Below are positions 8,173 through 63,716 of a stretch of DNA of 64,000 nt, in pieces. Origin of the DNA: a virus. Lineage: Duplodnaviria > Caudoviricetes. The stretch is taken from positions 18,229 to 82,228 of IMG/VR virus record IMGVR_UViG_3300032007_000060. One strand, written 5' to 3'. Positions within the stretch are counted from its first letter, which is position 1; the number at the start of each line of letters is the position of its first letter. Below the pieces are notes generated by a model that was given only the letters and a program-made list of their open reading frames with translations, searched no databases and had not been told where the DNA came from. The position numbers were made by a program, and so were the translations under genes.

Positions 8173-8439
8173 TTATGCCTCGGACTCCTCATCTTCAATC
8201 AACTCGTCATCTTCAAAAGCATCTTCATCATATTTTAAACGGTTGAGAATGCGAATTTTTTTATCAGGTTCAACTAGTTCCATACCTAATGGATATACTG
8301 CATAATTTTCATATTCGCTTGTTTTGATTGATTCTCCTAATTTTTGTGTTATTTCATCAATGTTTTTGTAGATTTTACTTCCTCTTTCGTCAGGTATTCT
8401 TAATATTACTGCGAATAATACATCATAATTATTACTCAT
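8173..8439 (-). CDS. hypothetical protein
   Basis: 88-aa ORF with acidic tail. Confidence 0.55.
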   Translation of the reverse strand: MSNNYDVLFAVILRIPDERGSKIYKNIDEITQKLGESIKTSEYENYAVYPLGMELVEPDKKIRILNRLKYDEDAFEDDELIEDEESEA

Positions 8440-8813
8440 TTTTTAAACTCCTCTAATTCTTTTTCTAACCATTCTTTAAATTCATTAATACAAGATTCAT
8501 CACCTAAACTACTTAACACATGATTACCGGTGTTATCATAGATGCTGTAGTTCATGCCATAATCTGGATTGCCTAACCATCTCTCTGATGTGATTATGAA
8601 TCTGGTTACTGGTTGGATTAATGGTCTTTGATACCCAAACAGGCTTTCATAATATTCCTGCTGTTCTTTTGCTCTTTCCATATCCATACAGATTAGTCCA
8701 TGAACATAACAAATCTTATCAATTATCATGGTTAATGGCATTCTTTTCAATGTATCTAATAATAATACAGCATCGATTACTTTACAGTATTTAATGATAA
8801 ATCTTTGTTTCAT
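8436..8813 (-). CDS. hypothetical protein
   Basis: probable start MKQRF at 8813, coupled to a 59-aa upstream ORF. Confidence 0.5.
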   Translation of the reverse strand: MKQRFIIKYCKVIDAVLLLDTLKRMPLTMIIDKICYVHGLICMDMERAKEQQEYYESLFGYQRPLIQPVTRFIITSERWLGNPDYGMNYSIYDNTGNHVLSSLGDESCINEFKEWLEKELEEFKK

Positions 8814-8985
8814 TTCTTTGCCTCTTTGAATATGCTGCCTATTGGTGCAAAACACTCAACAAAAGCTGGTTCGGTATCCTCCCATAATTCTCCCCAATTG
8901 GTACATTCATATTCCTTATGGTCATACCAGTCACAGTCTTTATGCTGCTTGGTCGGGTGAATATGAAGATCATCTGGGTTGAGTT

Positions 8986-9702
8986 TCATTCTATCACTTT
9001 TTTAGCTGCTTCCATGTCCCCCTCATAAATATGGAGACTGCTTGAATTGTAGTTTATTCCCTCGAATTCAAGAGTAGGATAATTTTCTTTCAATGCTTCA
9101 ACCAGTTTGATTCCGATGTAGCTGATGAAAAGCATATTTGATGGGAATGCACTGTAACAATCATTTGACCGGAATATCACGTGCAAGATTAACTTATTAT
9201 TCCTTATGGTTGCTTGAACCCAATTCAAACAAGGAATGTGTTGTTCTGTTGCATCTAATCCGCAGTTATATAATGTTGCTACAGCTCGATTGCTTCCAGC
9301 ATGTTCAAGTAATCTGTACTCCATGATTTCTAATTGGTTTGCATCTATTTCTTCATCAAATCTGTCAATAGCAGGATAACAGCATAATCTCTGAGGGTAT
9401 GTATAGACGAAATCTCCTCCATCAATCATGTATGGATCATCAAGACTTTCCACATATTCAGCAAGTGCAAGGTCCTTAATTGGATATCCATTTATATTAA
9501 AAACCCCTTTACGAATCATACTGATAAACATTTTACTGTTAATATTTTGACCGCCGAATTGTTTTAATGGACTGTCAATAAAACAATGATTGATTAATGA
9601 TTCTACGAGTACATCACCATCGTCTTTTTCATGTTCTTCTCCAGTTTCAATTATTTTCTTCAAAAATTTTTTCCATGCATCTTCAAGTTTCATTTGTCTC
9701 AT
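8986..9702 (-). CDS. thyA: thymidylate synthase (archaeal ThyA-type)
   Basis: SNRAV, catalytic HIPCL, FRSND, AFPSN (Asn indicates dUMP specificity), SSSLHIY; start refined to ATG 9702. Confidence 0.85.
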   Translation of the reverse strand: MRQMKLEDAWKKFLKKIIETGEEHEKDDGDVLVESLINHCFIDSPLKQFGGQNINSKMFISMIRKGVFNINGYPIKDLALAEYVESLDDPYMIDGGDFVYTYPQRLCCYPAIDRFDEEIDANQLEIMEYRLLEHAGSNRAVATLYNCGLDATEQHIPCLNWVQATIRNNKLILHVIFRSNDCYSAFPSNMLFISYIGIKLVEALKENYPTLEFEGINYNSSSLHIYEGDMEAAKKVIE

Positions 9703-9874
9703 CTCTCTTTTTCTCTTAATTCCTTTCCTGCAAGCAATCCTAAATATAAAAACATAAACCACATTGAAATCATACTAAACATATTCCTATTAACAGTCCA
9801 ATCAACTAAATAAGAACAAATAACAGATATGCCCATACCTATGACACATATCAACATTATTTTAGAAATATCAT

Positions 9875-24682: not shown

Positions 24683-25780
24683 TCATTCCATCTTTAAATA
24701 TTCATTTACAACACTTAAAATACGTTCTTTATGATTATAAATTTCAGAAACATTTTCAATATCTACCTTCTCACCTTTCTTACCGCCGTTAGATGTAAGA
24801 GTAATTTCATCGTAGAATTCAACACGTAGATGATCTTCATTATTGAAATAAAATCTCACAATTGGATATCTTTGATTGTTGTCGTATAAGATATTGCAGT
24901 AATGTTTCCTGTCACGAATTGCTACTTTATCCGGATCAACAATTTCAGAAGCAATAGACCTGACAATGAAATAACCTTCCTTCTCAATATCAGTAGTGAT
25001 AATTCCATCTTCAGAAATAATTTCTTCTTCAGCTTCGATATTATTATTGTCTTCCTGCTCTTCCTCATTACTTGCCACAGCATTTGCTAATGTTTTGTTG
25101 ACTCTTTCGTTAATGATTTCATTAATTGCAATGCTAATGATATTTCCGAATTTTTCTTTTATTCCAGGAGTTAGCTTTCCATCGTAAACTTGGCGCCCTA
25201 TTGCTTTTATGAAATCATCGGTTGGATTTTCAAATTCTGACAATAAAGTTTTTTTAATTGAGTTACGATATTTAAGGTTGTCTGCTCTGGAAACAACTTC
25301 ATCAATGTCAAAGTTAACTTTTTTGAATTTTTCAAGTTCTTTCATATCTTTTTTGGTTAGGTTTAACAGATCAATGTCGAGGAATGGTTTTTCATCCATT
25401 CTGTTGTTGTCTTCTCCGGTTGTGAAGAATTTGTATTCTACTCCATTTGTGAGGATTCCTATTTGGATGTCTGTTATGCTGAAGTATCTGTATAGTTGTG
25501 AGATGTTGTCTGTGGTTAGTTCATTGGATGCTGATTTGCATTCGATGAATACTAATGGTTCTCCGTCTTGGAGGATTGCAAAGTCTACTTTTTCTCCTTG
25601 TTTTGTTCCAACGTCTGCGGTGTATTCGGCTTTTACTTCTGCAGGATTTGTTGTATCATAACCCATTAATCGTAAGAATGGAGTTATTAATGCGATTTTA
25701 CTTGTTTCTTCACTGTCTATGTGTTCCAGTTTGTTTGGAATTGTTTTTGAGAATTCTTTTATTTCATCTTCAAAAGTCAT
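24683..25780 (-). CDS. type I restriction HsdR N-terminal (HSDR_N) domain protein
   Basis: SEETSKIALITPFLRLMGYD...AEYTAD..KQGEKVDFAI...FIECK...QLYRYF...ILTNGVEYKFF (PD-(D/E)xK nuclease). Confidence 0.8.
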   Translation of the reverse strand: MTFEDEIKEFSKTIPNKLEHIDSEETSKIALITPFLRLMGYDTTNPAEVKAEYTADVGTKQGEKVDFAILQDGEPLVFIECKSASNELTTDNISQLYRYFSITDIQIGILTNGVEYKFFTTGEDNNRMDEKPFLDIDLLNLTKKDMKELEKFKKVNFDIDEVVSRADNLKYRNSIKKTLLSEFENPTDDFIKAIGRQVYDGKLTPGIKEKFGNIISIAINEIINERVNKTLANAVASNEEEQEDNNNIEAEEEIISEDGIITTDIEKEGYFIVRSIASEIVDPDKVAIRDRKHYCNILYDNNQRYPIVRFYFNNEDHLRVEFYDEITLTSNGGKKGEKVDIENVSEIYNHKERILSVVNEYLKME

Positions 25781-27172: not shown

Positions 27173-28363
27173 TTATTTTTCACTTATCCTTTCAAGAATA
27201 CTTTCACGAGTAACTGGTTTGTCATCTATCTCATCCAATCTTTTTTCAATAACATTCATACGAGATTCCATTTCCTTAACTTCAGACTCTTTCTCATGAT
27301 ACTTAACTTCCAACTCTTGATATTCTGGACTCTTAATATCAATATTATTAACATTTTTCTCAATAAGCAAACATGGGAAATGCTCAACATATTTTTTCAA
27401 AAGTACAGTTGGATCATCTAAAAAATAAGCTGCTCTTGTAGTTGACTTGGTTCTGCCTTGCAGCGCATCAATATCAGATTCACTCATACCAGATTTCCTG
27501 AGATGATTTGAATGAAATTTACGCATCATGTGACTGCGGAAACGATTAAAACCATCACTTGCTTGACCAAAGTTAAACTGGTCATTGTACCGGTAATATG
27601 CAACTGGAATGTAGTTTTCTTCTTTGTCAAACAATTTATCATCGTCTGATAAATTAATAAGTTTCAAGGTTCCGTCTTCAAGTGTTTCTACACGGTCTGT
27701 TAAAAGATATTCAACAATTTTATCAACTGCTTCTGGAGTGCAGAAAGTGTAATAATATTTATTGGTTTTTTCTCTTTTCAGTTTAAAAGTAGGAATAACA
27801 TTGTCTAAATCTTTTAAGATTAGTAATGCTTCGATTATATCGTTTTTTCTATGGAATGGGTAGGTTGCTTTTTTGAATTGACCTATAGTCATTTCGATTG
27901 TTTCTTTTCTTGCGCATCCGGTTGATATTTGGAATATTAATACTGCTTGGAACCATAGTGGTGCAACGTGTAATACTTGGCTTATTTCTTTGTGTGTTAA
28001 TAGTTCGTCGAAAGTTACTTCCCCGGGGATGTGGAATCCCCGTGGGTTAACTTTTGTTAAGTCTCCTATTTCGATTTCAAAGTATTTGTATACTGCAATT
28101 ACTTGTGTGAAATATGTTGATACTGTATTTTTTTTGTAGTTTTGTATTAGGTAGTTTCTGAATTGCAGTAGTCTTTTTTTTAGTGTTCTACGTTTCCATC
28201 TTACTCCTTTTTCTTCTTCTGTTTCTGCTTCGTCTATTAATTCTTCCATTGTTAAACCATGGAATTTTGAGTATTTGTTTATTGCTCTGGTGTAGATTTC
28301 ACGTGTTTTTGGATCATGGTTTTTTACTAGGAAGAATTCTTCGAGCAATTCTTCGTTTCTCAT
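27173..28363 (-). CDS. tyrosine recombinase/integrase A
   Basis: STGCARKE, KREKT, RSHMMRKFH, LQGR, terminal AAY catalytic Tyr. Confidence 0.9.
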   Translation of the reverse strand: MRNEELLEEFFLVKNHDPKTREIYTRAINKYSKFHGLTMEELIDEAETEEEKGVRWKRRTLKKRLLQFRNYLIQNYKKNTVSTYFTQVIAVYKYFEIEIGDLTKVNPRGFHIPGEVTFDELLTHKEISQVLHVAPLWFQAVLIFQISTGCARKETIEMTIGQFKKATYPFHRKNDIIEALLILKDLDNVIPTFKLKREKTNKYYYTFCTPEAVDKIVEYLLTDRVETLEDGTLKLINLSDDDKLFDKEENYIPVAYYRYNDQFNFGQASDGFNRFRSHMMRKFHSNHLRKSGMSESDIDALQGRTKSTTRAAYFLDDPTVLLKKYVEHFPCLLIEKNVNNIDIKSPEYQELEVKYHEKESEVKEMESRMNVIEKRLDEIDDKPVTRESILERISEK

Positions 28364-29094: not shown

Positions 29095-30132
29095 ATGTAT
29101 CACAGTAAACTATTCACAAAATTTTGTAAAGACCGAAACGTTAAAAAAAGCACCAAAAAAGGTTATGAATCCGCATTAAAAAATTATACCCGATACCATA
29201 ACCAAACAATTGAAGAACTAATACAAGAAGCCCAAACTGATGAAAAAAACAAAATAATCCTAAAAGATAGAAAAATCAAAAAAAGATTACTCAAATACAG
29301 GACCTATTTATTCAGCAGCAACAAATCACCAAACACAATTAAAACATACTTCACTAGGGTAAAAACATTCTATGCTCATTTTGAAATTGAAATCCCAAAG
29401 TTACCTGATGCAAAATATGATAAAATCTATGAAACCAACTACATGGACCTACCTACAAAAGAAGATATCCGCAAAGTATTAGATTTGGTAACAGTAGACC
29501 TCCGCAGCATAATATTATTCATGTCATCTTCAGGAACTGCCAAGGCAGAAACATTAAGCATTACCATAGAACAATTCATCAATGGAACACGTGACTACCA
29601 CAATGGTGGAACCATCCAACAAATACTAGAAACATTATCAAAAAAGAATAATATAATTCCAACATTCTATTTGAAAAGAATCAAGACAGATAAATACTAT
29701 TACACTTTCTGTTCCCCTGAAGCTGCATCCGAAATCGTCAAATATCTTCAAGTCAGAAGTGACTTGAAACTTGATGATCCACTTTTCAACTTCACACCAG
29801 GAACATTATTAACTCGATTCCAAGAAATAAATGACCAACTCGGATGGGGATTTAAAGGCAGTTATAGGTTCTTTAGAAGTCATACCTTACGGAAATTTCA
29901 TGCAAGTAATATAGGATTATCTGCTGAATATATTGACAGTTTACAGGGCCGTAGTAAAAATGAGATACATGAAACATATATTAAAACCAATCCTGAAAAG
30001 TTAAAGGAAATCTACCAATCCGCAATGCATAATGTAATGATATATAACAAACCACGTGAAGAACATGTTACTCAAGAATTCACAATAGTGATTAATGTAT
30101 TCTTATCAGGTAAAGAGTATAATATAATTTAA
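29095..30132 (+). CDS. tyrosine recombinase B (candidate invertase)
   Basis: SSGTAKAE, KRIKT, RSHTLRKFH, LQGR, ETY; paralog of recombinase A; 1.7 kb from the shufflon. Confidence 0.85.
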   Translation: MYHSKLFTKFCKDRNVKKSTKKGYESALKNYTRYHNQTIEELIQEAQTDEKNKIILKDRKIKKRLLKYRTYLFSSNKSPNTIKTYFTRVKTFYAHFEIEIPKLPDAKYDKIYETNYMDLPTKEDIRKVLDLVTVDLRSIILFMSSSGTAKAETLSITIEQFINGTRDYHNGGTIQQILETLSKKNNIIPTFYLKRIKTDKYYYTFCSPEAASEIVKYLQVRSDLKLDDPLFNFTPGTLLTRFQEINDQLGWGFKGSYRFFRSHTLRKFHASNIGLSAEYIDSLQGRSKNEIHETYIKTNPEKLKEIYQSAMHNVMIYNKPREEHVTQEFTIVINVFLSGKEYNII

Positions 30133-31822: not shown

Positions 31823-32167
31823 TCAGCAAATACCTCCTCAATACAGATTAAAGTTAAAGGAAAAAAACTTGTTGAACAATTAAACAATAATAAAATAAAA
31901 GTATATGTTATAGATGGAACTCATGTTTGTATTGGAATATATGGTGATTCATTTACTTTAACTGGTCAAAATACCACGATTGGTACGGTAAGTAATCTAT
32001 ACAAACCATTAGCAAGACAAGTAGTACTTGCACATAACTCCATTAATTCAGATAAGTTGTTCTTTTATGAAACAGGTGAGATCATATATGTGAGACTTAC
32101 TGGAAGTGCTACAACTGGTACTGTGAATAGTGGATTTTATTGTCCTTTGTTAAATCCATTGTATTAA
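31823..32167 (+). other. silent tail-fibre tip cassette 1 (114 aa)
   Basis: starts in frame at TCAGCAA (SANTSSIQIKVKG); YKP motif; homologous to the C-terminus of 33536..34423. Confidence 0.85.
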
Positions 32168-32176
32168 CGTACATAT

Positions 32177-32512
32177 TCAGCAAGTACTCAGAATACACAG
32201 GTTAATGTTACTGGATGGAAAAGAGTAGTGTATTACAGTAACAATAATAATAATTTTGAAATTTGGACTGACGGAAGATTAGCCACATATATTGTGAATA
32301 CAAATAATTTCTCTGTATCTGCTAACGTTTCTCAAACATTAACTTCCTTTGATAATAAATATGCTCCAATATATGTAGTTGGAATAAAAACAATTAATAA
32401 TCATCAAAAAACTGCAGTAATAGTTGATAATCAAGTGTATATACAATCTACAGATACTGATGGTAATATGTGGGGTACTGCAACAGTACTATTAAAAAAG
32501 TCACTATATTAA
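32177..32512 (+). other. silent tail-fibre tip cassette 2 (111 aa)
   Basis: SASTQNTQVNVTGWK...KYAP...; in frame from TCAGCAA, no start codon at the site. Confidence 0.85.
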
Positions 32513-32521
32513 CAATATTAT

Positions 32522-32842
32522 TCAGCAAATAATTCATCTATCCAAGTAAAAGTAGGAGGATGGCAATCCCGAGGAACCATTGCAACTGGTGTCAAATTAT
32601 ATGTAAATGGAGAAACAAGAACTGCAATGGTAACGGGAGTTAATATATCTCTTTCTGCAGGTGCTGAGGAACAGACTATTGCTGAAATTCCATCTGCATA
32701 TGCTCCTATTGAAAGTACAGTTACAGGAACTGCATTTAATTATGAAAGAGTAATGGTTAGAACTAATAATCGAGCGGTTAATGTTTATAATTTTAATAAG
32801 AGTATTACAGGATTATCATTTACTATTCTATATCCTTATTAA
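32522..32842 (+). other. silent tail-fibre tip cassette 3 (106 aa)
   Basis: SANNSSIQVKVGGWQ...IPSAYAP...LYPY*. Confidence 0.85.
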
Positions 32843-32856
32843 AATAAAGAATCTCT

Positions 32857-33183
32857 TCAGCAAATACTGCATCCATTCAAATTAAAGCGGATGGATGGAG
32901 AACCATCTCTACTGCTAAAGGAACATTAGAAGTTAATGAAGCATTACAATTAGCTCATTTTACATGCAGTGAAAATGTTAGCTTCCCTACCACTTCATGG
33001 CAGTTTATTGAAAAAAATAATATCCCTTCACAATATAAACCATCAAGATACATAAATGATGTTAATTTTATAGGTAGTGGCAATCAGGTATATGCTGCGC
33101 AAATCACTAAACAAGGTCATGTAATGGGATACTCCAATTATGGGAACGCTCTTATTACAATGGATGTAACTTGGAAATATTAA
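32857..33183 (+). other. silent tail-fibre tip cassette 4 (108 aa, absent from ORF track)
   Basis: translated by hand: SANTASIQIKADGWR...IPSQYKP...MDVTWKY*. Confidence 0.85.
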
Positions 33184-33212
33184 AACTAAACTTCTATATT
33201 CTATTGAATTAT

Positions 33213-33539
33213 TCAGCAAATACCCACAACACAATACAAATCCTTGTAACTGGATTTAAACAAGTACAATCACTTGAAAATGATAAAATTAAAGTATACT
33301 TCAACGGAAGAACAGTATATATTGATATATGGGGAACATTCAACATGACAAGTGGAAGTGTGGGTACAATAACCACAATATCTAAAGAATATGCTCCAAA
33401 AGGTAAAGGAGGTGTTTATTCAAGTCCTTATCCTGCAGGTTCTGAAAAAGTATTTATCAATTCAGATGGTCAGATACAATATTATCCTGGTGGATCAAAC
33501 AAAAGCATTTATGCAACATTACAATATACAATAAGTTAA
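33213..33539 (+). other. silent tail-fibre tip cassette 5 (108 aa)
   Basis: SANTHNTIQILVTGFK...KEYAP...IYATLQYTIS*; stop overlaps the stop of the expressed gene. Confidence 0.85.
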
Positions 33540-34423
33540 TATTTCCATTGTAACGTAGCATAAACCCCCACATTAGTTATTGCAGATCCAGTATAACTAT
33601 ATCTAGATACTTTCCCATTCTCGTTGACTTGAACAATTGCTCTATTCCCTACAAATATATGACTAACAACGGGGGTAGCTGGTCGGTATCCTGCAGGCAC
33701 TACAAATCCTCCGAACTCTTCGGGGTTTGCAGTAATAATTGTTGATGCAATATGAATTCGGAGTTCACATAATTCATGATTATATGAGAAAGTATAATCA
33801 GAATTGTTTGTTGGTGTTTTCCAACCTTTAACATTAATTTGAGTTTGAGAATTATTTGCTGAAAACGTGGTTAATCCCCAAGTGTCTGCAGTATAACTCA
33901 ATTGAAAAGTACCATTAACACCAGTTGTTCCAGACTTCCAAGTCGAGTTATTCTTCAAGACAGGAACAGTCACACCAGTCACTGGTCGACCTGTGGCCCT
34001 GTTAGTAACTTTCACTGTAATATTAACACTACTGTCAATATTCACATTATATGCTGAAGCTGTGATTTGATAATCATATAAATTAATAATCTGACTTACC
34101 GGATGAGTGTGACTTGCTGGAGCATAAGCGGATAACTGTGAGACTTTTGCAAAATCAGAAGATACGAAACCGGATAGTTTAGTTGCATTAATTTCTTTAG
34201 ATTCATTAATATTCTCAAGTATTTCCTCTAATCTTTCCTCTGTGAAATATGTTTCATCAATTACTGCTAATTGTGCCTGCATTTCTGCTAATGTTTCAGC
34301 ATTTGCTACACTAATACTTCCGAGATTATCTCCGCTTGTTGAGATAACAGTTACTTCTGCTCCGATGATTCTTCCATCATCTTCGCTATATGTTCTTACA
34401 TTAAAATCAACCATTGTTACCAC
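33536..34423 (-). CDS. tail fibre / receptor-binding protein, expressed allele (187-aa constant part plus 108-aa variable tip)
   Basis: ASHTHP fibre motif, Ig-like segment, crossover at TTF-SANNSQTQINVKGWK, tip with PAGYRP. Confidence 0.85.
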   Translation of the reverse strand: MVTMVDFNVRTYSEDDGRIIGAEVTVISTSGDNLGSISVANAETLAEMQAQLAVIDETYFTEERLEEILENINESKEINATKLSGFVSSDFAKVSQLSAYAPASHTHPVSQIINLYDYQITASAYNVNIDSSVNITVKVTNRATGRPVTGVTVPVLKNNSTWKSGTTGVNGTFQLSYTADTWGLTTFSANNSQTQINVKGWKTPTNNSDYTFSYNHELCELRIHIASTIITANPEEFGGFVVPAGYRPATPVVSHIFVGNRAIVQVNENGKVSRYSYTGSAITNVGVYATLQWKY

Positions 34424-37949: not shown

Positions 37950-38056
37950 TTTAATCAACTCCATTGAGAATTTTTTTGATGAATTATTATAAGTATGAAT
38001 ATTTCTTGGGAAATGGTGTTGGTGATTTAAATATAAAAGCTGAATGTAACTTAGTA

Positions 38057-38515
38057 ACAGAAATATTCGCTCTTCAAGATTGTTGGGATTACGATACCAC
38101 TACCCGTAACCTTGCACCAAACAGTAGTCTAAGCCAAATTGACAGTTTCGCATTCACTAATACTGGTGATTGGGAAGTGGAATGGATAATGAGATTACCA
38201 TCTGGTAAAAGTAGGGTAGTATTATACAATCCAAGCAATGCCAATGTCTTTTTAGGAGTGGGAGCAAGTGAAAACAATAACCGTGTTATTTACTGGTATG
38301 GTCATGAAGATGGAGAAACTCCTTATTCATACAATACCGATTACACTATAAAAATCCAAAAAGATGGCAGTAACTTTAAAATATACTCACAAGGGTCATT
38401 ATTAAAGACTATGACTTATAGTGATTTACTGAATACTTCTACCATCAATTTAGGTTTAAGGAATTGGGGTAGTGGAACTGGAACAATCCGTAATGTAAAG
38501 ATTAAACCATTATAA
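38057..38515 (+). other. silent alternative C-terminal domain (152 aa) of the adhesin
   Basis: TEIFALQDC...GTIRNVKIKPL* parallels the adhesin's TEIFALQDC...SKIKNVKFKSL*; tail-to-tail stops at 38510-38515. Confidence 0.85.
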
Positions 38516-39022
38516 TGATTTGAATTTTACATTCTTGATTTTTGAAGTTCCACTTGCACCCCATCTCATCATAGACATACAGTAATCAGTATAATTATCA
38601 ATCCAAGACAATATGAATGAGCCTATTAAATTATCATCAACATAAACACTTATGCTTGTTTCATCTTTAACAAATTTGACAGTATGATAAGTTCCTGATG
38701 TGGCAGTAACCGATGGGAAACCTACACTTTGACTGCTATTGTTCTCCCTTTTACCGAAAGCCATTTGATTATTTCTTAACATATCCAAGTAAATCGCATA
38801 TTGTGGTTGTGTTGTACCACTACTGTATTGTGTCTTTGGCATAATGAAGAAACGATGTTCCCCAGTACTAGTGTTATCAGACCATATATCAAAACTTATT
38901 TCACATTTGCTTGGTAATGATTGGCTTAAACTGTTATCATAGATTGTTGAACCATTGGTGGAACTTCGAGTAACTTCGGCAGTATTATAGTAACTGCAAT
39001 CTTGAAGAGCGAATATTTCTGT
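38057..39022. repeat. perfect 26-bp inverted repeat bounding an invertible segment
   Basis: ACAGAAATATTCGCTCTTCAAGATTG at 38057-38082 (+) and 38997-39022 (-). Confidence 0.9.
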
Positions 39023-41698
39023 GAATATTATTCCGCAATTTGCTTTTATATATAAATCTCCTGTACCTTTTCCCAAGTAAGATACGCTTGCCTCTCCAGA
39101 ACTATCAGTAACATCAGAACCAAGACTTTCACCATTCACAACTTCAAAACTTACAGTTTCACCAACACAAGGATTACCATTAGAATCCAATACTTTCGCA
39201 GTAATAGTGGCAGTTTCACCTTTCATCATAATTGGCTTGTCAGATGAAACTGTGATGCTTGCAGGTGCCGGACGGTCACTTACAACAACATTAACAATAC
39301 TTGATTCAACATTATTATAAGTGGCATCTCCTTCATATACTACTTTATAACTGAATGTTCCTGCGACAGATGAAGTGATTGATTTGCTGAATGTTCCATC
39401 ATTACCAGTGGTTAATTGAGGGTCTATGAGTGTATTACCATCATATAATTTGATATTTACACTTCCTAATCCTGAACCGTTATATAATAATGCACCAGAT
39501 AAAGTGTAGGAGTCACCAGTGGTGACACTTGCACTGCTGGTGACTAAGCTGATTGTTGGTGTGCGTTTTACAATAGTTACATTTACATCAGAAGAGGTTG
39601 CACTATCATAAGTGCCGTCTCCTTCGTATACGGCCTTGTATGTTTTACTGGATACAATGGAAGCGGTTAATGTTTTACTGAATGTTCCATTGTCTGTTGT
39701 TACTGTGTGGAGTAATGTTTCACCGTCATAGATTTTTACATCAACATCATCCATTCCTGTTGTACCAGTTTTTAATGTTCCTGATAATGTGATTGTTTCT
39801 CCAAGGTCATAACTGGATTTATCTGCATTGAATGTTATTGTTGTTGGTTTCTTATTCACAGTTATGTTTTCAGTTGCATTATTACTGTAATAATCTTCAT
39901 CACCTTCAAATACTGCTTTAATGCTAACTGCTCCACTAATATTTGCAGTTATATCTTTACTGAAGTTTCCTGCATTGCCTTGTGTTGTCACAGTATCCAC
40001 CAACGTGTTATTCACATAAATTTTTATACTTTTACCTGTTAAAGCTGTGAGTTCATCATCAGTTAATGATCCTCTTATCTCGATTGTTTCCCCGATAGTG
40101 TAGGTTGATTTATCTGTAGATAATGTGAGTATTGTACTTGTTTTACCTGCTCCTTCACTAATCACTACATATAATGGATTAGTATTCTTATTATTGTTAA
40201 TCCAGTTACTGTTACTTACTAATGTGCTGCTGGTGTCATGTGTTAATGTTATATCTTGCAGGTTCAATGATTGGTTTTGATATACTCTGAAGAATTTTAA
40301 TCCTACACTATTATTGATTGTAGGGTTTCCGCAGCCGAGTATTGTGCAAGTGTAGGGTACGTTATAGATATGGTCTGTTGAATGTGTACCTGAAGTTAAT
40401 ACGATGAGGTTTTCTTCACCATTCACCATTGACAGGGCCTTATCTAATGTAGCGAATGGGTCATCAATTTTACCAGTATTATTATCATTTCCTGAAGTGG
40501 AAACATACCAGTTACCCGTATTACATCCACGGACAGTGACTTCAAGAGTTTCCGTTTCAAAAATAGTAGGTCCTTCATAGGCCTCGAATTTAAAAACATT
40601 AGGAGCATCATCACTGATTAAATCACTGGTTACTGTATATTGTTCTCCAGTATAATTTTCGACGAGGACTGTATCTTCTTCATCACCCAATAATGTGATT
40701 GTTACACTGTAATCCCCAGTTAATTTCTCAGCAAGACTATTCAAGAATTGGAAATTAAATATTACATTCTGATTCTTAACAGGTATTAAAGTATTAGCTG
40801 ATACAAAGAAGAATCTTCCATTATCCGATGTTAATTCGCATAATTTGTCTTTATGTTCCCATGGCATTGGTGTCCAGTCACCGACAAGGCCTGTTTCTTC
40901 ATCGTATGGGTGCATATGTTCATCGAACATCTTTAAGAGGTATTCTTCTCTGTTTATCATGTCGCTGAAGATGCCGTATTCTTTCCATATTTCTAATACG
41001 GGTAATGCTGTGTTATGTATTCTGAGATTGTATTCTATGATACGGTTCATGTAATGATAATCATCTTCACTTAACCTGTTGTTGTATGGTGGTTCGGTAT
41101 GTTCATAATCTTCAGTACTTTTATATGTTTTTCTTTGTATGCCGTTTAATGCTCCGATTTCATCTAAACTGTAATCATGGTCGAATTCATTTCCCAATTC
41201 CTCATCGTTTTCAGGGAATCCTTTTTCAATAATGATTTCATCATATGCTTCGGCTATAATCTTAAAAGTATCATCAGGAATTATAGGAATTTCAATCTCA
41301 CTATCCTCTACTTCATTTTCTTCCTCATTATCTTCAACATTCTCATCAACAATTGTATTTTCCTCACTACTATCATAAGAATAAATGAAAGAATTAACAT
41401 TATCCTCTTCTAAGTATTCTTCCATATAGAGCAGAGTATCATTTTTATAACATTTCACACTTTTCAACTGAGGATAATTCACAACAAAATTAATAACATA
41501 ATCATAAGGCACACTTTGCTCCTTCCAAATACAACAACGCTTCCTTAACCTCAAACTATCAGAAACATCACTAATACTTTGAAAAATACCCTTCAAAAGA
41601 TTATTAGTAACACTCTGAGATTTAAAGAAATTACTTGTCTCCGACTTATCAAAAAAATGAGGAAACATCTTAATTAAACTTTGCATACTCCTTTTCAT
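38510..41698 (-). CDS. baseplate-anchored adhesin/tail fibre with Ig-like repeats and ConA/LamG-like tip
   Basis: WYVSTSGNDNNTG..DDPFAT motif; 3-4 Ig-like repeats (TITLSGTL...VKIYDG...T..NGTFS...Y.GD..Y); C-terminal beta-sandwich. Confidence 0.8.
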   Translation of the reverse strand: MKRSMQSLIKMFPHFFDKSETSNFFKSQSVTNNLLKGIFQSISDVSDSLRLRKRCCIWKEQSVPYDYVINFVVNYPQLKSVKCYKNDTLLYMEEYLEEDNVNSFIYSYDSSEENTIVDENVEDNEEENEVEDSEIEIPIIPDDTFKIIAEAYDEIIIEKGFPENDEELGNEFDHDYSLDEIGALNGIQRKTYKSTEDYEHTEPPYNNRLSEDDYHYMNRIIEYNLRIHNTALPVLEIWKEYGIFSDMINREEYLLKMFDEHMHPYDEETGLVGDWTPMPWEHKDKLCELTSDNGRFFFVSANTLIPVKNQNVIFNFQFLNSLAEKLTGDYSVTITLLGDEEDTVLVENYTGEQYTVTSDLISDDAPNVFKFEAYEGPTIFETETLEVTVRGCNTGNWYVSTSGNDNNTGKIDDPFATLDKALSMVNGEENLIVLTSGTHSTDHIYNVPYTCTILGCGNPTINNSVGLKFFRVYQNQSLNLQDITLTHDTSSTLVSNSNWINNNKNTNPLYVVISEGAGKTSTILTLSTDKSTYTIGETIEIRGSLTDDELTALTGKSIKIYVNNTLVDTVTTQGNAGNFSKDITANISGAVSIKAVFEGDEDYYSNNATENITVNKKPTTITFNADKSSYDLGETITLSGTLKTGTTGMDDVDVKIYDGETLLHTVTTDNGTFSKTLTASIVSSKTYKAVYEGDGTYDSATSSDVNVTIVKRTPTISLVTSSASVTTGDSYTLSGALLYNGSGLGSVNIKLYDGNTLIDPQLTTGNDGTFSKSITSSVAGTFSYKVVYEGDATYNNVESSIVNVVVSDRPAPASITVSSDKPIMMKGETATITAKVLDSNGNPCVGETVSFEVVNGESLGSDVTDSSGEASVSYLGKGTGDLYIKANCGIIFTEIFALQDCSYYNTAEVTRSSTNGSTIYDNSLSQSLPSKCEISFDIWSDNTSTGEHRFFIMPKTQYSSGTTQPQYAIYLDMLRNNQMAFGKRENNSSQSVGFPSVTATSGTYHTVKFVKDETSISVYVDDNLIGSFILSWIDNYTDYCMSMMRWGASGTSKIKNVKFKSL

Positions 41699-60357: not shown

Positions 60358-61695
60358 TTAGAAGTAAATTACACCTAATGGTGTTGCAGGTACAGTTTTT
60401 TCTCTTGGTCCGTATAGTCCGCCTCTCCACATGTCGGGGCAGTGGTCGTTTATTTTTAATGGTTTGTCTTCGCCTTTTTGTTGGGCTTTTTTATCCCAGC
60501 TGTAAGTTTGAGCTTGACTTATGCTGTTGGTGCAGTCTTGGTGTATGAAGAATCTGTTGTTGTTGAATAAGTCTTGAGTTTTTTTGATGTCTTCATATGT
60601 GTCTGGTGCGTAGGTTTTGACTTTGAGTTTTAATCGTGAGTCTTTTTGACAAGCGGTTTTAAGACTTGCTGCATCGTGAGGTAGGAATAATGTACTGTTC
60701 TCATTTAACTCGTACTTATCCTGTAATCCGATAATATCATCAACTCTTTCACTATCTGATTGTGTGACTCCAATATCTTCAGCATCATAGTAGGTTTCCT
60801 CAAGAAGATAATAGTTATTTCCCTGATTGATGTCTCTATGAATACCCATCACACCAAAAGTAGTGACTGTACTTACACCGTAGTCGCAGCAGATGTTAAT
60901 TTCATGAATTTGTTGATCTGCCGGAAATTCATTGTTAAGATAATTCCATGTGAAAACATTTTGAGTTGTGTCAAAACTATCATAGATTGCTCCTTCAGCA
61001 ATAACCCACTCACCCAATATATTCCTTTTATAGAATACCTCAGATTTCTGATTAACACGTTTCAATTCTTCCACATATTCCAATGGAAGATTAGGATTAT
61101 CATCTAAAAGGAACTTCCAAGTTTTAACAGTTCCTGCTTTTAATAAATCATGGTTGTTAATGTAATTAGTGAACAAATAATGATAAGGACTATCAGGGTT
61201 AGTGTTCCAGAACATTTTAGCTCCAACATCACTGCAACGACTGATGGCCATGTCTACCGCAGATTTTGGACATCTTGCTATCTCATCTGCTAACCATCCA
61301 CCAACACTCATACCTGCAATAACATCAACAGCTTTTTCATCATTGAAACCCATACAGTAACAGGTTTTACCATCAATAATTAATTCACCATCATGAGCAC
61401 GAAAATCATAAGGAATATCTTCAGTATTCATCATTGCCATTAAAGGTTTCAAAACATTACGCTTCAATGACTGTGAAGTTTTACCAGATATTAAAAATTC
61501 ATCAGAATTAGATTCAGCAAGAAAAGTCAACCACCTTGCATTACAGGTAATTGTCTTACCTGACCTTACTGATCCATAAGCAATATTAATCCAAGCATCA
61601 CTATTACGAAAGAAATCCACTGCAGTACGACCAAACTCACCATATTCAAAATAAGTTTTAGTCTCCTTCATCTTCTCGCCTATGCTTATCTTCAC
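60358..61695 (-). CDS. terminase large subunit
   Basis: YGSVRSGKT Walker A, WLADE Walker B, NTNPDSP, CCDYG and NDHCPD nuclease motifs. Confidence 0.95.
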   Translation of the reverse strand: MKISIGEKMKETKTYFEYGEFGRTAVDFFRNSDAWINIAYGSVRSGKTITCNARWLTFLAESNSDEFLISGKTSQSLKRNVLKPLMAMMNTEDIPYDFRAHDGELIIDGKTCYCMGFNDEKAVDVIAGMSVGGWLADEIARCPKSAVDMAISRCSDVGAKMFWNTNPDSPYHYLFTNYINNHDLLKAGTVKTWKFLLDDNPNLPLEYVEELKRVNQKSEVFYKRNILGEWVIAEGAIYDSFDTTQNVFTWNYLNNEFPADQQIHEINICCDYGVSTVTTFGVMGIHRDINQGNNYYLLEETYYDAEDIGVTQSDSERVDDIIGLQDKYELNENSTLFLPHDAASLKTACQKDSRLKLKVKTYAPDTYEDIKKTQDLFNNNRFFIHQDCTNSISQAQTYSWDKKAQQKGEDKPLKINDHCPDMWRGGLYGPREKTVPATPLGVIYF

Positions 61696-62071
61696 TTGAT
61701 TTTATAGCATCAGCAAGACCAGATAAACCTTTATGAGTAACATCAGCTTCAATTTTTTCACGTTTACCATACATGTTCGGATGTCTTCTTTCCAACATCC
61801 ATGCTGCAGCTTGCCAATGTTCCATACTTGCTGAAACAATGACCTGTTCAAAGTTATGTAACGCTTTATTTTTCGCTGTTTCAACACAATCTTTGAACCT
61901 CACATATTTCGTTCTAGTCTTTGCTTCTTTTGCTCTATTAATCCAGTTATAATAAGTTTTTTCATCAATTCCAACATAACCACAAGCCCCAAGAATACTA
62001 CTTCCATTTTCTATAGCTTCACAAAACTTAGCTTGCAATTCTGGGGTCAATTTCTGATTATATCTTGCCAT
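61658..62071 (-). CDS. terminase small subunit
   Basis: HTH (SILGACGYVGIDEKTYYNW), WQAAAWMLERRHP, directly upstream of TerL. Confidence 0.8.
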   Translation of the reverse strand: MARYNQKLTPELQAKFCEAIENGSSILGACGYVGIDEKTYYNWINRAKEAKTRTKYVRFKDCVETAKNKALHNFEQVIVSASMEHWQAAAWMLERRHPNMYGKREKIEADVTHKGLSGLADAIKSSEDKHRREDEGD

Positions 62072-62125: not shown

Positions 62126-63139
62126 TTACGAAATTTTATCAAGAATATTATACCTGATATGCTCTGCAATAGCTTTCATCAGGTTGGGTGGTACACTATT
62201 TCCAATTCTTTCTTTGATTTGATTATCCGAACCTATCCACTTGAAAGTGTTAGGAGGATAAGTGAAAGATTGAAGTATACTGAGTTCCTGCACATCAAGT
62301 TCTCTGTTTTCTTTGTAATGGACCAATTGTGGTTTTCGTGTGATTGTTGGACATGGTTTATTGGGTCTTACCCTAAGACATTTGTAATGGAGAATGTCTC
62401 TGGGATGATTAAAGGTAATATGAAAATTATCTTCAAAGACATATTAACCCAATTAAAAGCATCAGGTTATGATGTTCGTGCAAAATTAATGAATGCACAA
62501 TATTATAATTGTCCTACAAGTAGGCAAAGGATGATTTTTATTGGAGTTAGGAAGGATTTAGGCATACCAGCAAGTCATCCTAAACCAACAAGTAAACCAA
62601 TCACAGTTCGTGAAGCAATTGGACATTTGGAAAATAAGATTAAACCTAATAATTCAAGTATTACAAGATATGCACATTACTTAAGACCAGGTCAAAAATC
62701 CGGTGACTTACCATATTTTCCAACAAAGACTCGGGATATTTATAGGGTATAACCCTCTGAGTAATCTAATATACTCATGATATAATTGATTTTTTGTATC
62801 GCAGAAATCTCGGGCTCCTGCGGTACTGAACCCTTGACATGGTGGTGAACCATCAAACAGATCAAGTTCTCCAGGTATTAGTCCTGTGGTTTCCAGTACT
62901 TTTTCAACACTTAACTTATGAATGTCACCATAATATACTGGTGTTTGTGGGAAGTTTCTTTGATATGTTGCTACTGCATGTGTGTCCATTTCTACAGCTA
63001 ATAATACTTTGTATCCTGCTAAATAGTAACCGTAACTTGAACCTCCGCATCCGCTGAATGTTGAAATTACTGTTGGTGGTTTATGAGTAGTCCTCTTTTG
63101 GGAGTTCATATCCACACCTTGGACAAGTAATGGTTTCAA
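62126..63139 (-). CDS. dcm: C5 cytosine DNA methyltransferase with an inverted central segment (OFF configuration)
   Basis: motifs I-IV (FSGCGG, EMD, GSPPCQGFS) on - at 62744-63139; motifs VI/VIII (FVMENV, TSRQRMIFIG) on + at 62375-62749; PCPTIT and motif X (RIGNSVPP) on - at 62126-62368. Confidence 0.9.
62365..62752. repeat. inversion junctions with a 7-bp inverted core
   Basis: TACCCTA at 62369-62375 (+) and 62743-62749 (-); hairpins GTCTTA-CCC-TAAGAC (62365-62379) and TTATA-GGG-TATAA (62740-62752). Confidence 0.85.
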
Positions 63140-63716
63140 TACTATCTGCTATGGATTCATCGTATTCTGGTTCGTCTTCTGGGATTATCATTGATGAGTC
63201 TAATGTTACTTCTTCATCGTTTTCTGCAAGTGTGTCATTGTTTAACTTGTTGTTTAATCCTGTGAAGCCAGTTATTTCAGAGTTGTCGAATCCGGTTAAA
63301 CCCATTTGGTTAAATCCTGATTCTTGTAAGTCGTTGAAGACTTGGTGTAATTTTTCTTCGTTCCAGTCTCCGCTTACACGATTCAATACTAGGTTTAATG
63401 CTTTTTCCATATCTTCAGATTCTAGGTTTTTGTCATTGTCTGGGAATACCCATCCGTAACTTTCGTTTAATCTGAGTAGGTTTACTTCAGCATATATGTT
63501 GTTATCTAATAAGTGTTGGTCGAATAGGACGTCGAATCTTTGATGTCCTCCGATTATACGATTATTAGATAGGTTGATTAGTATTGGTTCTACTATTCCA
63601 AAGTTATTGATACTGTTTTCTAGTTTCTTTTTTTCTTCTTTTGAGATTTGTCTAGGGTTGTAATTTGCTGGTACTAGGTCAGTTAGTTTTATTTTTTCAA
63701 TTTTCATCTTTTTCAT
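63081..63716 (-). CDS. ParB/Srx-like N-terminal domain protein
   Basis: IKLTDLVPANYNPRQIS...LENSINNFGIVEPILIN...IIGGHQR; C-terminal CPRC. Confidence 0.85.
   Translation of the reverse strand: MKKMKIEKIKLTDLVPANYNPRQISKEEKKKLENSINNFGIVEPILINLSNNRIIGGHQRFDVLFDQHLLDNNIYAEVNLLRLNESYGWVFPDNDKNLESEDMEKALNLVLNRVSGDWNEEKLHQVFNDLQESGFNQMGLTGFDNSEITGFTGLNNKLNNDTLAENDEEVTLDSSMIIPEDEPEYDESIADSIETITCPRCGYELPKEDYS

Follow-up and report, generated by a model that had tools for sequence, protein, structure and literature searches.

In the fim switch of Escherichia coli the tyrosine recombinases FimB and FimE act on the 314-bp fimS, an intergenic promoter element with 9-bp inverted repeats, and in the G/Gin system of Mu, the C/Cin system of P1 and the shufflons (Rci of R64) receptor-binding proteins are varied by C-terminal cassette exchange. 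Inversions in hsdS, Type II and BREX methylase genes act by cassette exchange with silent partial copies and alter specificity (PMC9881135; Milman et al. 2023). Intragenic invertons have been described in bacteria, with one archaeal case, in a survey of cellular isolates (PMC10028968; Chanin et al. 2024). Phase-variable methylation is known from cells, and programmed inversions in viruses are known for receptor-binding proteins; we found no report in the literature of a virus-encoded methylase toggled by internal inversion, which is not proof of absence. Here we analyse a viral locus which, in our assessment, is likely to be a natural intragenic invertible element that toggles a Dcm-type C5 methyltransferase by recombination at 7-bp cores, the virus appearing to place its own DNA-modification enzyme under an inversion switch.

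A methyltransferase gene in three pieces

The window, by which we mean the whole stretch of DNA analysed, covers the final 64 kb of an IMG/VR virus record of 82,228 bp (linear, ~79% complete), and the methyltransferase locus lies 1-2 kb from the contig end. A Dcm-type C5 methyltransferase is present there in three parts, with the N-terminal part on the minus, the middle part on the plus and the C-terminal part on the minus strand, as an orphan gene between ParB-like and terminase genes. The earlier note, made from the sequence alone, had described the gene as broken in three with its middle on the opposite strand, and the profile search of the window agrees: three PF00145 pieces keep the order of the profile with the middle one reversed, and all three exceed the curated cut-off of 22 bits. 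The features of the locus are as follows.

63081-63716, minus strand: ParB-like gene, neighbour
62744..63139, minus strand: N-terminal piece, PF00145 profile positions 2-100 (E 2.7e-23; 83 bits), with motif I (FSGCGG) and motif IV (PPCQGFS) in its translation
62708..62743, minus strand: out-of-frame tail INIPSLCWKIW and stop, which terminates the truncated N product in the inverted state (ORF 62708..63139)
62375..62749, plus strand: inverted middle piece of 125 codons, PF00145 profile positions 104-204 (E 4.4e-17; 63 bits), with motif VI (ENV), motif VIII (SRQRMIF) and the first part of the target-recognition domain in its translation
62126..62368, minus strand: C-terminal piece of 80 codons and stop, PF00145 profile positions 269-322 (E 3.5e-9; 37 bits), with the remainder of the recognition domain and motif X (GNSVPP) in its translation
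61658-62071, minus strand: small terminase, neighbour
60358-61695, minus strand: large terminase, neighbour

The likelier start of the N-terminal piece is ATG 63109, with TTG 63139 as an alternative. When 62369-62749 is re-inverted in silico, a single stop-free frame results, which has 337 codons from TTG 63139 and from ATG 63109 gives 327 aa, matching the natural intact protein P0002 (see below). At the two joins of the restored frame LRGLYP runs into KTFVMENV and RDIYRV into RPNKPCPTIT, and motifs I (FxGxG), IV (PCQ, with the catalytic Cys), VI (ENV), VIII (QxRxR) and X (GNSVP) stand in order both here and in P0002. This reproduces the in-frame joins, the 337-codon ORF and the ordered motifs that had been claimed for the restored gene, and the TACCCTA cores on which the claim was built were indeed found at 62369-62375 and 62743-62749. 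P0002 scores 172 bits on TIGR00675, for which the cut-off is 100.65, and the nearest solved chains are the bacterial C5 methylases M.HaeIII and M.HhaI. In the window copy as it is present, the motifs are divided between two strands and it therefore cannot make the enzyme.

Architecture and conservation of the inversion sites

The invertible segment comprises 381 bp (62369-62749), both of its ends lie inside the methylase frame, and in the inverted state seen in the window its two junctions are perfect palindromes.

62740..62752, no strand: junction J1, TTATA-GGG-TATAA, with the core TAGGGTA at 62743-62749
62365..62379, no strand: junction J2, GTCTTA-CCC-TAAGAC, with the core TACCCTA at 62369-62375

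In each site a CCC/GGG centre is flanked by half-sites, of which there are two types, A (TTATA) and B (GTCTTA), each found once outside and once inside the segment; the forward sites are A/B hybrids and the inverted junctions A/A and B/B. The palindromes of the present state are the same fact as the identical arms with an inverted centre that the earlier note had noticed in the restored state, and those restored junctions, TTATACCCTAAGAC and TTATAGGGTAAGAC, are found verbatim in natural intact alleles. In the non-inverting flanks the perfect 7-bp core extends to 11/13 (GGGTnnTACCCTA). By itself an inverted repeat of 7 bp could be due to chance, since 3 kb contain 233 inverted pairs of at least 7 nt; the signal rests on in-frame restoration, on 7 extra matching arm bases, on recurrence across contigs and on conservation of the sites. 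No additional copies of the site motif, and no cores with similar arms, were found in the window.

J1 and J2 are identical across all inverted contigs, save for one J1 base in L105. There (L105:570-584) a T-to-G change in the J1 core (GACCCTA) breaks the 7-bp repeat and would replace Tyr by Asp; possibly this variant is locked. The sister clade (L004-L011; protein identity 86-88%) has TTATATCCAAAGAC or a similar sequence at the first site, and at the second site several bases differ, LL being encoded where the inverton clade has VR. Within the inverton clade 44% of third codon positions are variable, against 0/9 inside the two 14-mers (P 0.005), and variable synonymous positions bound the first 14-mer on both sides. 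The sites are derived, and within the inverton clade they are conserved; had they been a harmful hot spot, decay would be expected, and they are preserved instead.

Both orientations occur in nature

The same junctions were found in both states, on about 26 forward and about 30 inverted contigs by a rough tally, originating from several assemblers and data sources (JGI, ENA with several assemblers and k values, Logan and NCBI MAG). When the plus-strand frame peculiar to the inverted state was used as the query, the matches were of two kinds, the chimeric frame itself (P0001) and the full-length methylase P0002, which has 327 aa, only 2 of them different from the restored protein of the window. 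P0002 is encoded on 15 rumen metagenome contigs, with the same ParB-methylase-terminase synteny, flanks 98-99.5% identical to those of the window and junctions that are exactly TTATACCCTAAGAC and TTATAGGGTAAGAC, and other forward alleles (P0124, P0127, P0129 and P0134) are carried by about 10 more contigs. Inverted contigs (L003, L086, L097-L112 and L126) likewise come from JGI, ENA, Logan and NCBI MAG, and the inverted alleles represent no fewer than four lineages, whose segments diverge by up to ~14% and whose junctions are the same. Truncated N products with the tell-tale tail occur on many more contigs than the ~11 of the chimeric-frame cluster, and the same INIPSLCWKIW tail is present in the database proteins P0121, P0128 and P0131-P0133.

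Overall, the inverted state is as common as the forward one. For 3/4 lineages, however, the matches listed (15 of the 75 members of protein cluster 1) include no intact forward copy. The only forward copy seen in those three lineages, L002, is frameshifted by a 1-base insertion at the junction. The insertion is an extra A within the half-site of the second junction (L002:4755-4775, IMGVR_UViG_3300021288_000002; TTTAATAGGG) and is missing from L003, the inverted twin of L002 at 99.9% identity; faulty recombination, a mutation that locks the element or an error of sequencing could each account for it. Both states from one sample were not found among the contigs of the samples fetched. Of ten short inverted contigs, eight break off 47-167 nt beyond J1, as would fit an assembly-graph branch caused by mixed orientations, and this indirect evidence is only a hint. 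Outside the inverton clade, sister clade included, the inverted orientation is absent in ~70 contigs. The phage GenBank collection gave no match to the locus, junction-specific scans of IMG/VR gave only two contigs, both already known, and one scanned metagenome added one contig.

Orientation, phylogeny and selection

The forward L002 and the inverted L003 are 99.8-99.9% identical over 8.4 kb, and the inverted window is 88.5% identical to both of them. In the window's own lineage, contigs at 98-99.5% identity are forward, and in the inverted lineages L098-L103 and L104-L105 the segment is ~14% different from that of the window. A maximum-likelihood tree of the gene and its flanks (29 rows, with the sites restored to one orientation) requires at least four state changes, which are forced by well-supported branches, and orientation is discordant with phylogeny. 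Mosaic recombination among these viruses blurs the tree. Contigs L087-L096 are 99% identical to the window on the terminase side, whereas towards ParB some have 98-99% and the others 90.7% identity, and this split shows recent mosaic recombination right at the locus.

Several simpler origins of the pattern were considered and rejected. Ordinary homologous recombination is ruled out, as the repeats are too short, and a single ancestral inversion shared by descent is contradicted by the tree and by the selection signal. Nor is the pattern explained by a lone inverted allele passed from virus to virus through recombination, each lineage having its own version of the segment; in two lineages this version occurs in both orientations.

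All of the full-length inverted copies (9/9) re-invert in silico to stop-free genes. Among inverted copies dN/dS is 0.065-0.13 at a dS of 0.19-0.80, among always-forward relatives it is 0.05-0.06, and between L098 and L100, both inverted, it is 0.08 over 48 differences. The inverted copies are under strong purifying selection, which excludes an inversion that inactivated the gene once and left it under relaxed selection. Either much time is spent in the forward state, as in a reversible switch, or there were many independent and very recent knock-outs; the pattern demands one of the two. Inversion regenerates both cores, which makes reversal mechanistically symmetric. We favour the reversible switch.

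An open frame specific to the inverted state

The inverted state creates one long open frame that does not exist in the forward state.

62159..62752, plus strand: chimeric frame of 197 codons, consisting of 72 codons antisense to the C-terminal piece and the middle piece, in frame

If started at TTG 62033 the frame reaches 239 codons, and in the protein collection it forms a cluster of 7 distinct sequences on ~11 contigs. TTA, CTA and TCA are the only codons of the C-terminal piece that would close the antisense frame, and the piece contains 0 of them where ~5.5 are expected (simulated P 1.5e-4). The N-terminal piece has 9-11 such codons, the middle piece 7-8 and the C-terminal piece of the sister clade 4-7, and GC3 does not account for their absence. 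Within the inverton clade dS in the C-terminal piece is about half that of the N-terminal and middle pieces. From codon usage of this kind, the openness of the chimeric frame looks selected.

Candidate recombinases and other inverted repeats

The virus encodes three proteins of the tyrosine recombinase type, two of them candidate invertases.

27173..28363, minus strand: candidate invertase, a 396-aa tyrosine-recombinase-like protein with weak PF00589 and SAM-like domain matches
29095..30132, plus strand: candidate invertase, a 345-aa divergent paralogue with SAM-like N-domain matches
G000:C1 ~8180-9850, minus strand, upstream of the window: 556-aa integrase with an AP2-like insert, seen only in this genome

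The two paralogous recombinase genes, which stand back to back, have conserved counterparts in related complete genomes. The second (29095..30132) shares with the first a 99-nt match that is 71% complementary, and has homologues in G001, G004 and G005 (85% and 71% identical). The pair occurs not only in the inverton clade but also in the sister clade, where the sites are missing, and an enzyme already resident may have been recruited once the sites had emerged. Going by the general features of tyrosine recombinases, 7 bp would be a suitable length for a core that serves as their overlap region. No serine recombinase (PF00239) was found in the genome, and neither a shared site motif nor co-occurrence that would tie any recombinase to the methylase sites was found.

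Other parts of these genomes carry repeats and recombinases of their own. An inverted repeat of 46 nt (80% complementary, 38052-38097 and 38982-39027) brackets ~880 bp with tail-to-tail coding modules, and from its layout 38052-39027 looks like a second, putative invertible locus in an adhesin-like gene; this adhesin-like region is too diverged between genomes for orientation to be compared. The site TCAGCAAATA occurs at 31823 and 32856 and, reversed, at ~33853, together with 38-48-nt imperfect inverted repeats, and 31823-33863 is compatible with a shufflon-like tail-fibre locus. Neither the shufflon-like site nor the adhesin repeat is similar to the methylase sites. G002, the contig of L003, has at ~34.1-37.1 kb three tandem strong tyrosine recombinases (369, 369 and 349 aa; 108-124 bits), which may belong to an inserted mobile element. 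Adjoining an Ig-like secreted protein and the recombinase pair of the window is a gene for a 365-aa protein with an HsdR N-terminal / PD-(D/E)XK nuclease domain (24683-25780, minus strand).

The probable host

One inverted copy, L104 (NCBI JAFUHT010000040.1), comes from a MAG labelled Methanobrevibacter sp. At 16.5-18.6 kb the L104 locus also encodes a set of replication and repair proteins of archaeal style, namely PCNA, a nuclease of the ERCC4/HhH type and a dCTP deaminase. By terminase, the closest relatives in the set of species-representative genomes belong to five Methanobrevibacter assemblies, one of which is that of the isolate M. cuticularis DSM 11139. One relative is classed as a provirus. 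In the Methanobrevibacter proviruses with a related terminase, the methylase studied here does not adjoin it. A search for the host marker pseudomurein endoisopeptidase (PF12386) gave no match and is uninformative, as control genomes were equally silent. The carrier is probably a tailed virus of rumen methanogens, with Methanobrevibacter as the host lead.

Proposed mechanism and alternatives

The locus is a real and recurrent on/off inverton, and very probably a reversible one, for which the support is indirect but strong, no back-flip having been observed directly. We propose that recombination between TACCCTA and TAGGGTA, each core embedded in a 13-15-bp site, would flip the 381-bp segment. 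The forward state would then give the complete 327-aa enzyme, the methylation activity of which is inferred in the absence of methylation data. In the inverted state, that of the window, the N product stops 11 codons past the junction, motifs VI and VIII are on the other strand and no methylase can be made. As inversion regenerates both cores, the reaction is chemically symmetric, and with frequent back-and-forth flipping selection on the forward form would be expected to preserve all three pieces. We infer catalysis by a site-specific recombinase, for which the conserved pair of virus-encoded tyrosine recombinases supplies the likeliest candidates, and the benefit, likewise inferred, would be a mix of 5mC-modified and unmodified genomes, either in virions or as the chromosome of a lysogen. 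The gene would then be a heritable on/off switch, which appears to flip repeatedly at the same two sites and the reversibility of which is probable.

A chimera formed at short inverted repeats during assembly or amplification would be the most trivial explanation. The locus is 1-2 kb from the end of the window's contig and the cores have only 7 bp; however, the identical two-junction inversion is seen in dozens of contigs (JGI, ENA, Logan and NCBI MAG), many of which span both junctions, the same pipelines yield both states, a 7-bp repeat cannot confuse assemblers with k of 21 or more, and the sister clade, which is without the sites, is never inverted. We can give almost no credence to this explanation, and an assembly artefact is effectively refuted. 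It is also conceivable, if in our opinion unlikely, that the sites are a one-way hot spot at which the methylase is repeatedly and irreversibly knocked out, with a selection signal that predates each knock-out; inverted forms would spread where methylation harms, for example in the presence of a methyl-dependent nuclease of the host. Consistent with this, inverted copies predominate in the three lineages without an intact forward copy found, the sole forward copy there (L002) is frameshifted, and a mixed-orientation sample was not seen among those fetched. On the other hand, about six or more independent recent inversions would be needed, including separate ones for L098 and L100, and in no inverted copy does any piece contain a stop or frameshift. 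The perfect cores are regenerated, which makes reversal as easy mechanistically as the forward step, and synonymous changes should erase a harmful hot spot, yet the sites are invariant. The earlier note had itself named an assembly or amplification chimera and a one-off inactivating inversion under relaxed selection as outcomes that would refute it. The former fails in view of both states in dozens of contigs from several pipelines, the latter in view of stop-free inverted copies, a dN/dS of 0.07-0.13 and at least four flips, and the comparison of orientation in related viruses that it had recommended yields both orientations in near-identical viruses. Its central proposal, a precise inversion that switches the methyltransferase off and is a switch and not a one-off event, is supported by the recurrence, the selection and the derived, conserved sites. 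As to its ON/OFF description, 'off' may be incomplete, as the chimeric frame is apparently kept open. The hedging of methylated and unmethylated virions between kinds of restriction, which it had put forward as the benefit, would be an inference only.

What is the role of this frame then? If the inverted state were itself functional, through the chimeric 197-aa protein or through a split enzyme, the pieces could be conserved without ever flipping back, and the stop-free antisense frame over the C-terminal piece, with 0 closing codons against the ~5.5 expected, and the halved dS of that piece relative to the other two would be in line with it. However, radical changes (F/P, W/R, C/R) are found at ~21% of positions in the 72 antisense-encoded residues, and this leader is therefore not behaving like a selected protein. 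The antisense frame has two stops in the L104 lineage, and no ribosome-binding site is evident upstream of the chimeric frame. A three-part enzyme is unlikely as well, as the middle piece is without motifs I, IV and X and the C-terminal piece without a good start codon. Function of the inverted state alone would also leave the sense-frame conservation of the N- and C-terminal pieces unexplained, and we hold it to be quite improbable. A toggle with two outputs, the methylase in the forward and the 197-aa chimera in the inverted state, with the codons of the C-terminal piece shaped accordingly and the sites arisen de novo for a resident invertase, is a doubtful but admissible possibility. The chimera would here be a leader antisense to the C-terminal piece fused to the central, DNA-facing segment of the methylase, and the sites would have evolved within coding sequence via two amino-acid changes and synonymous changes.

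Comparison with known systems

If the methylase is indeed toggled as we propose, a viral population would hold modified and unmodified genomes, or lysogens two epigenetic states. The locus also shows recombination sites arising within a conserved enzyme gene at almost no protein cost, and with dozens of natural alleles in both states already in public metagenomes, the switch is directly testable.

The closest counterparts are the intragenic invertons such as thiC of Bacteroides thetaiotaomicron, as the locus has terminal inverted repeats within one gene and occurs in both orientations with the same junctions. In both cases the inversion lies inside one CDS between short inverted repeats (~11 nt in the cellular examples), one orientation leads to a premature stop and population heterogeneity has been proposed. 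In contrast to them, the present carrier is a virus, probably an archaeal one, the target is a DNA methyltransferase, the core is 7 bp (11/13 when extended) and the evidence is comparative rather than read-level or experimental. The fim switch is alike in its similar size, its very short inverted repeats, its on/off character and the likely class of enzyme, tyrosine recombinases, but the viral element is coding sequence, not an intergenic promoter, and has no recombinase linked to it. With Mu, P1 and R64 the locus shares a programmed inversion that is borne by a virus or plasmid and, here by inference, serves bet-hedging, and the same genome has shufflon-like and adhesin repeats; unlike in those systems, it is a DNA-modification enzyme that is toggled, and no serine invertase is present.

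Phase-variable methyltransferases have in common with this locus a heritable programmed DNA change and what would be epigenetic heterogeneity. Whereas the hsdS, Type II and BREX loci exchange cassettes, here a single internal segment of an orphan, virus-borne C5 methylase gene flips and turns the gene on or off. Phasevarions depend on mod genes switched by simple-sequence repeats, and the viral methylase has neither a repeat tract nor an alternative cassette; it works like a phasevarion without being a member of that family.
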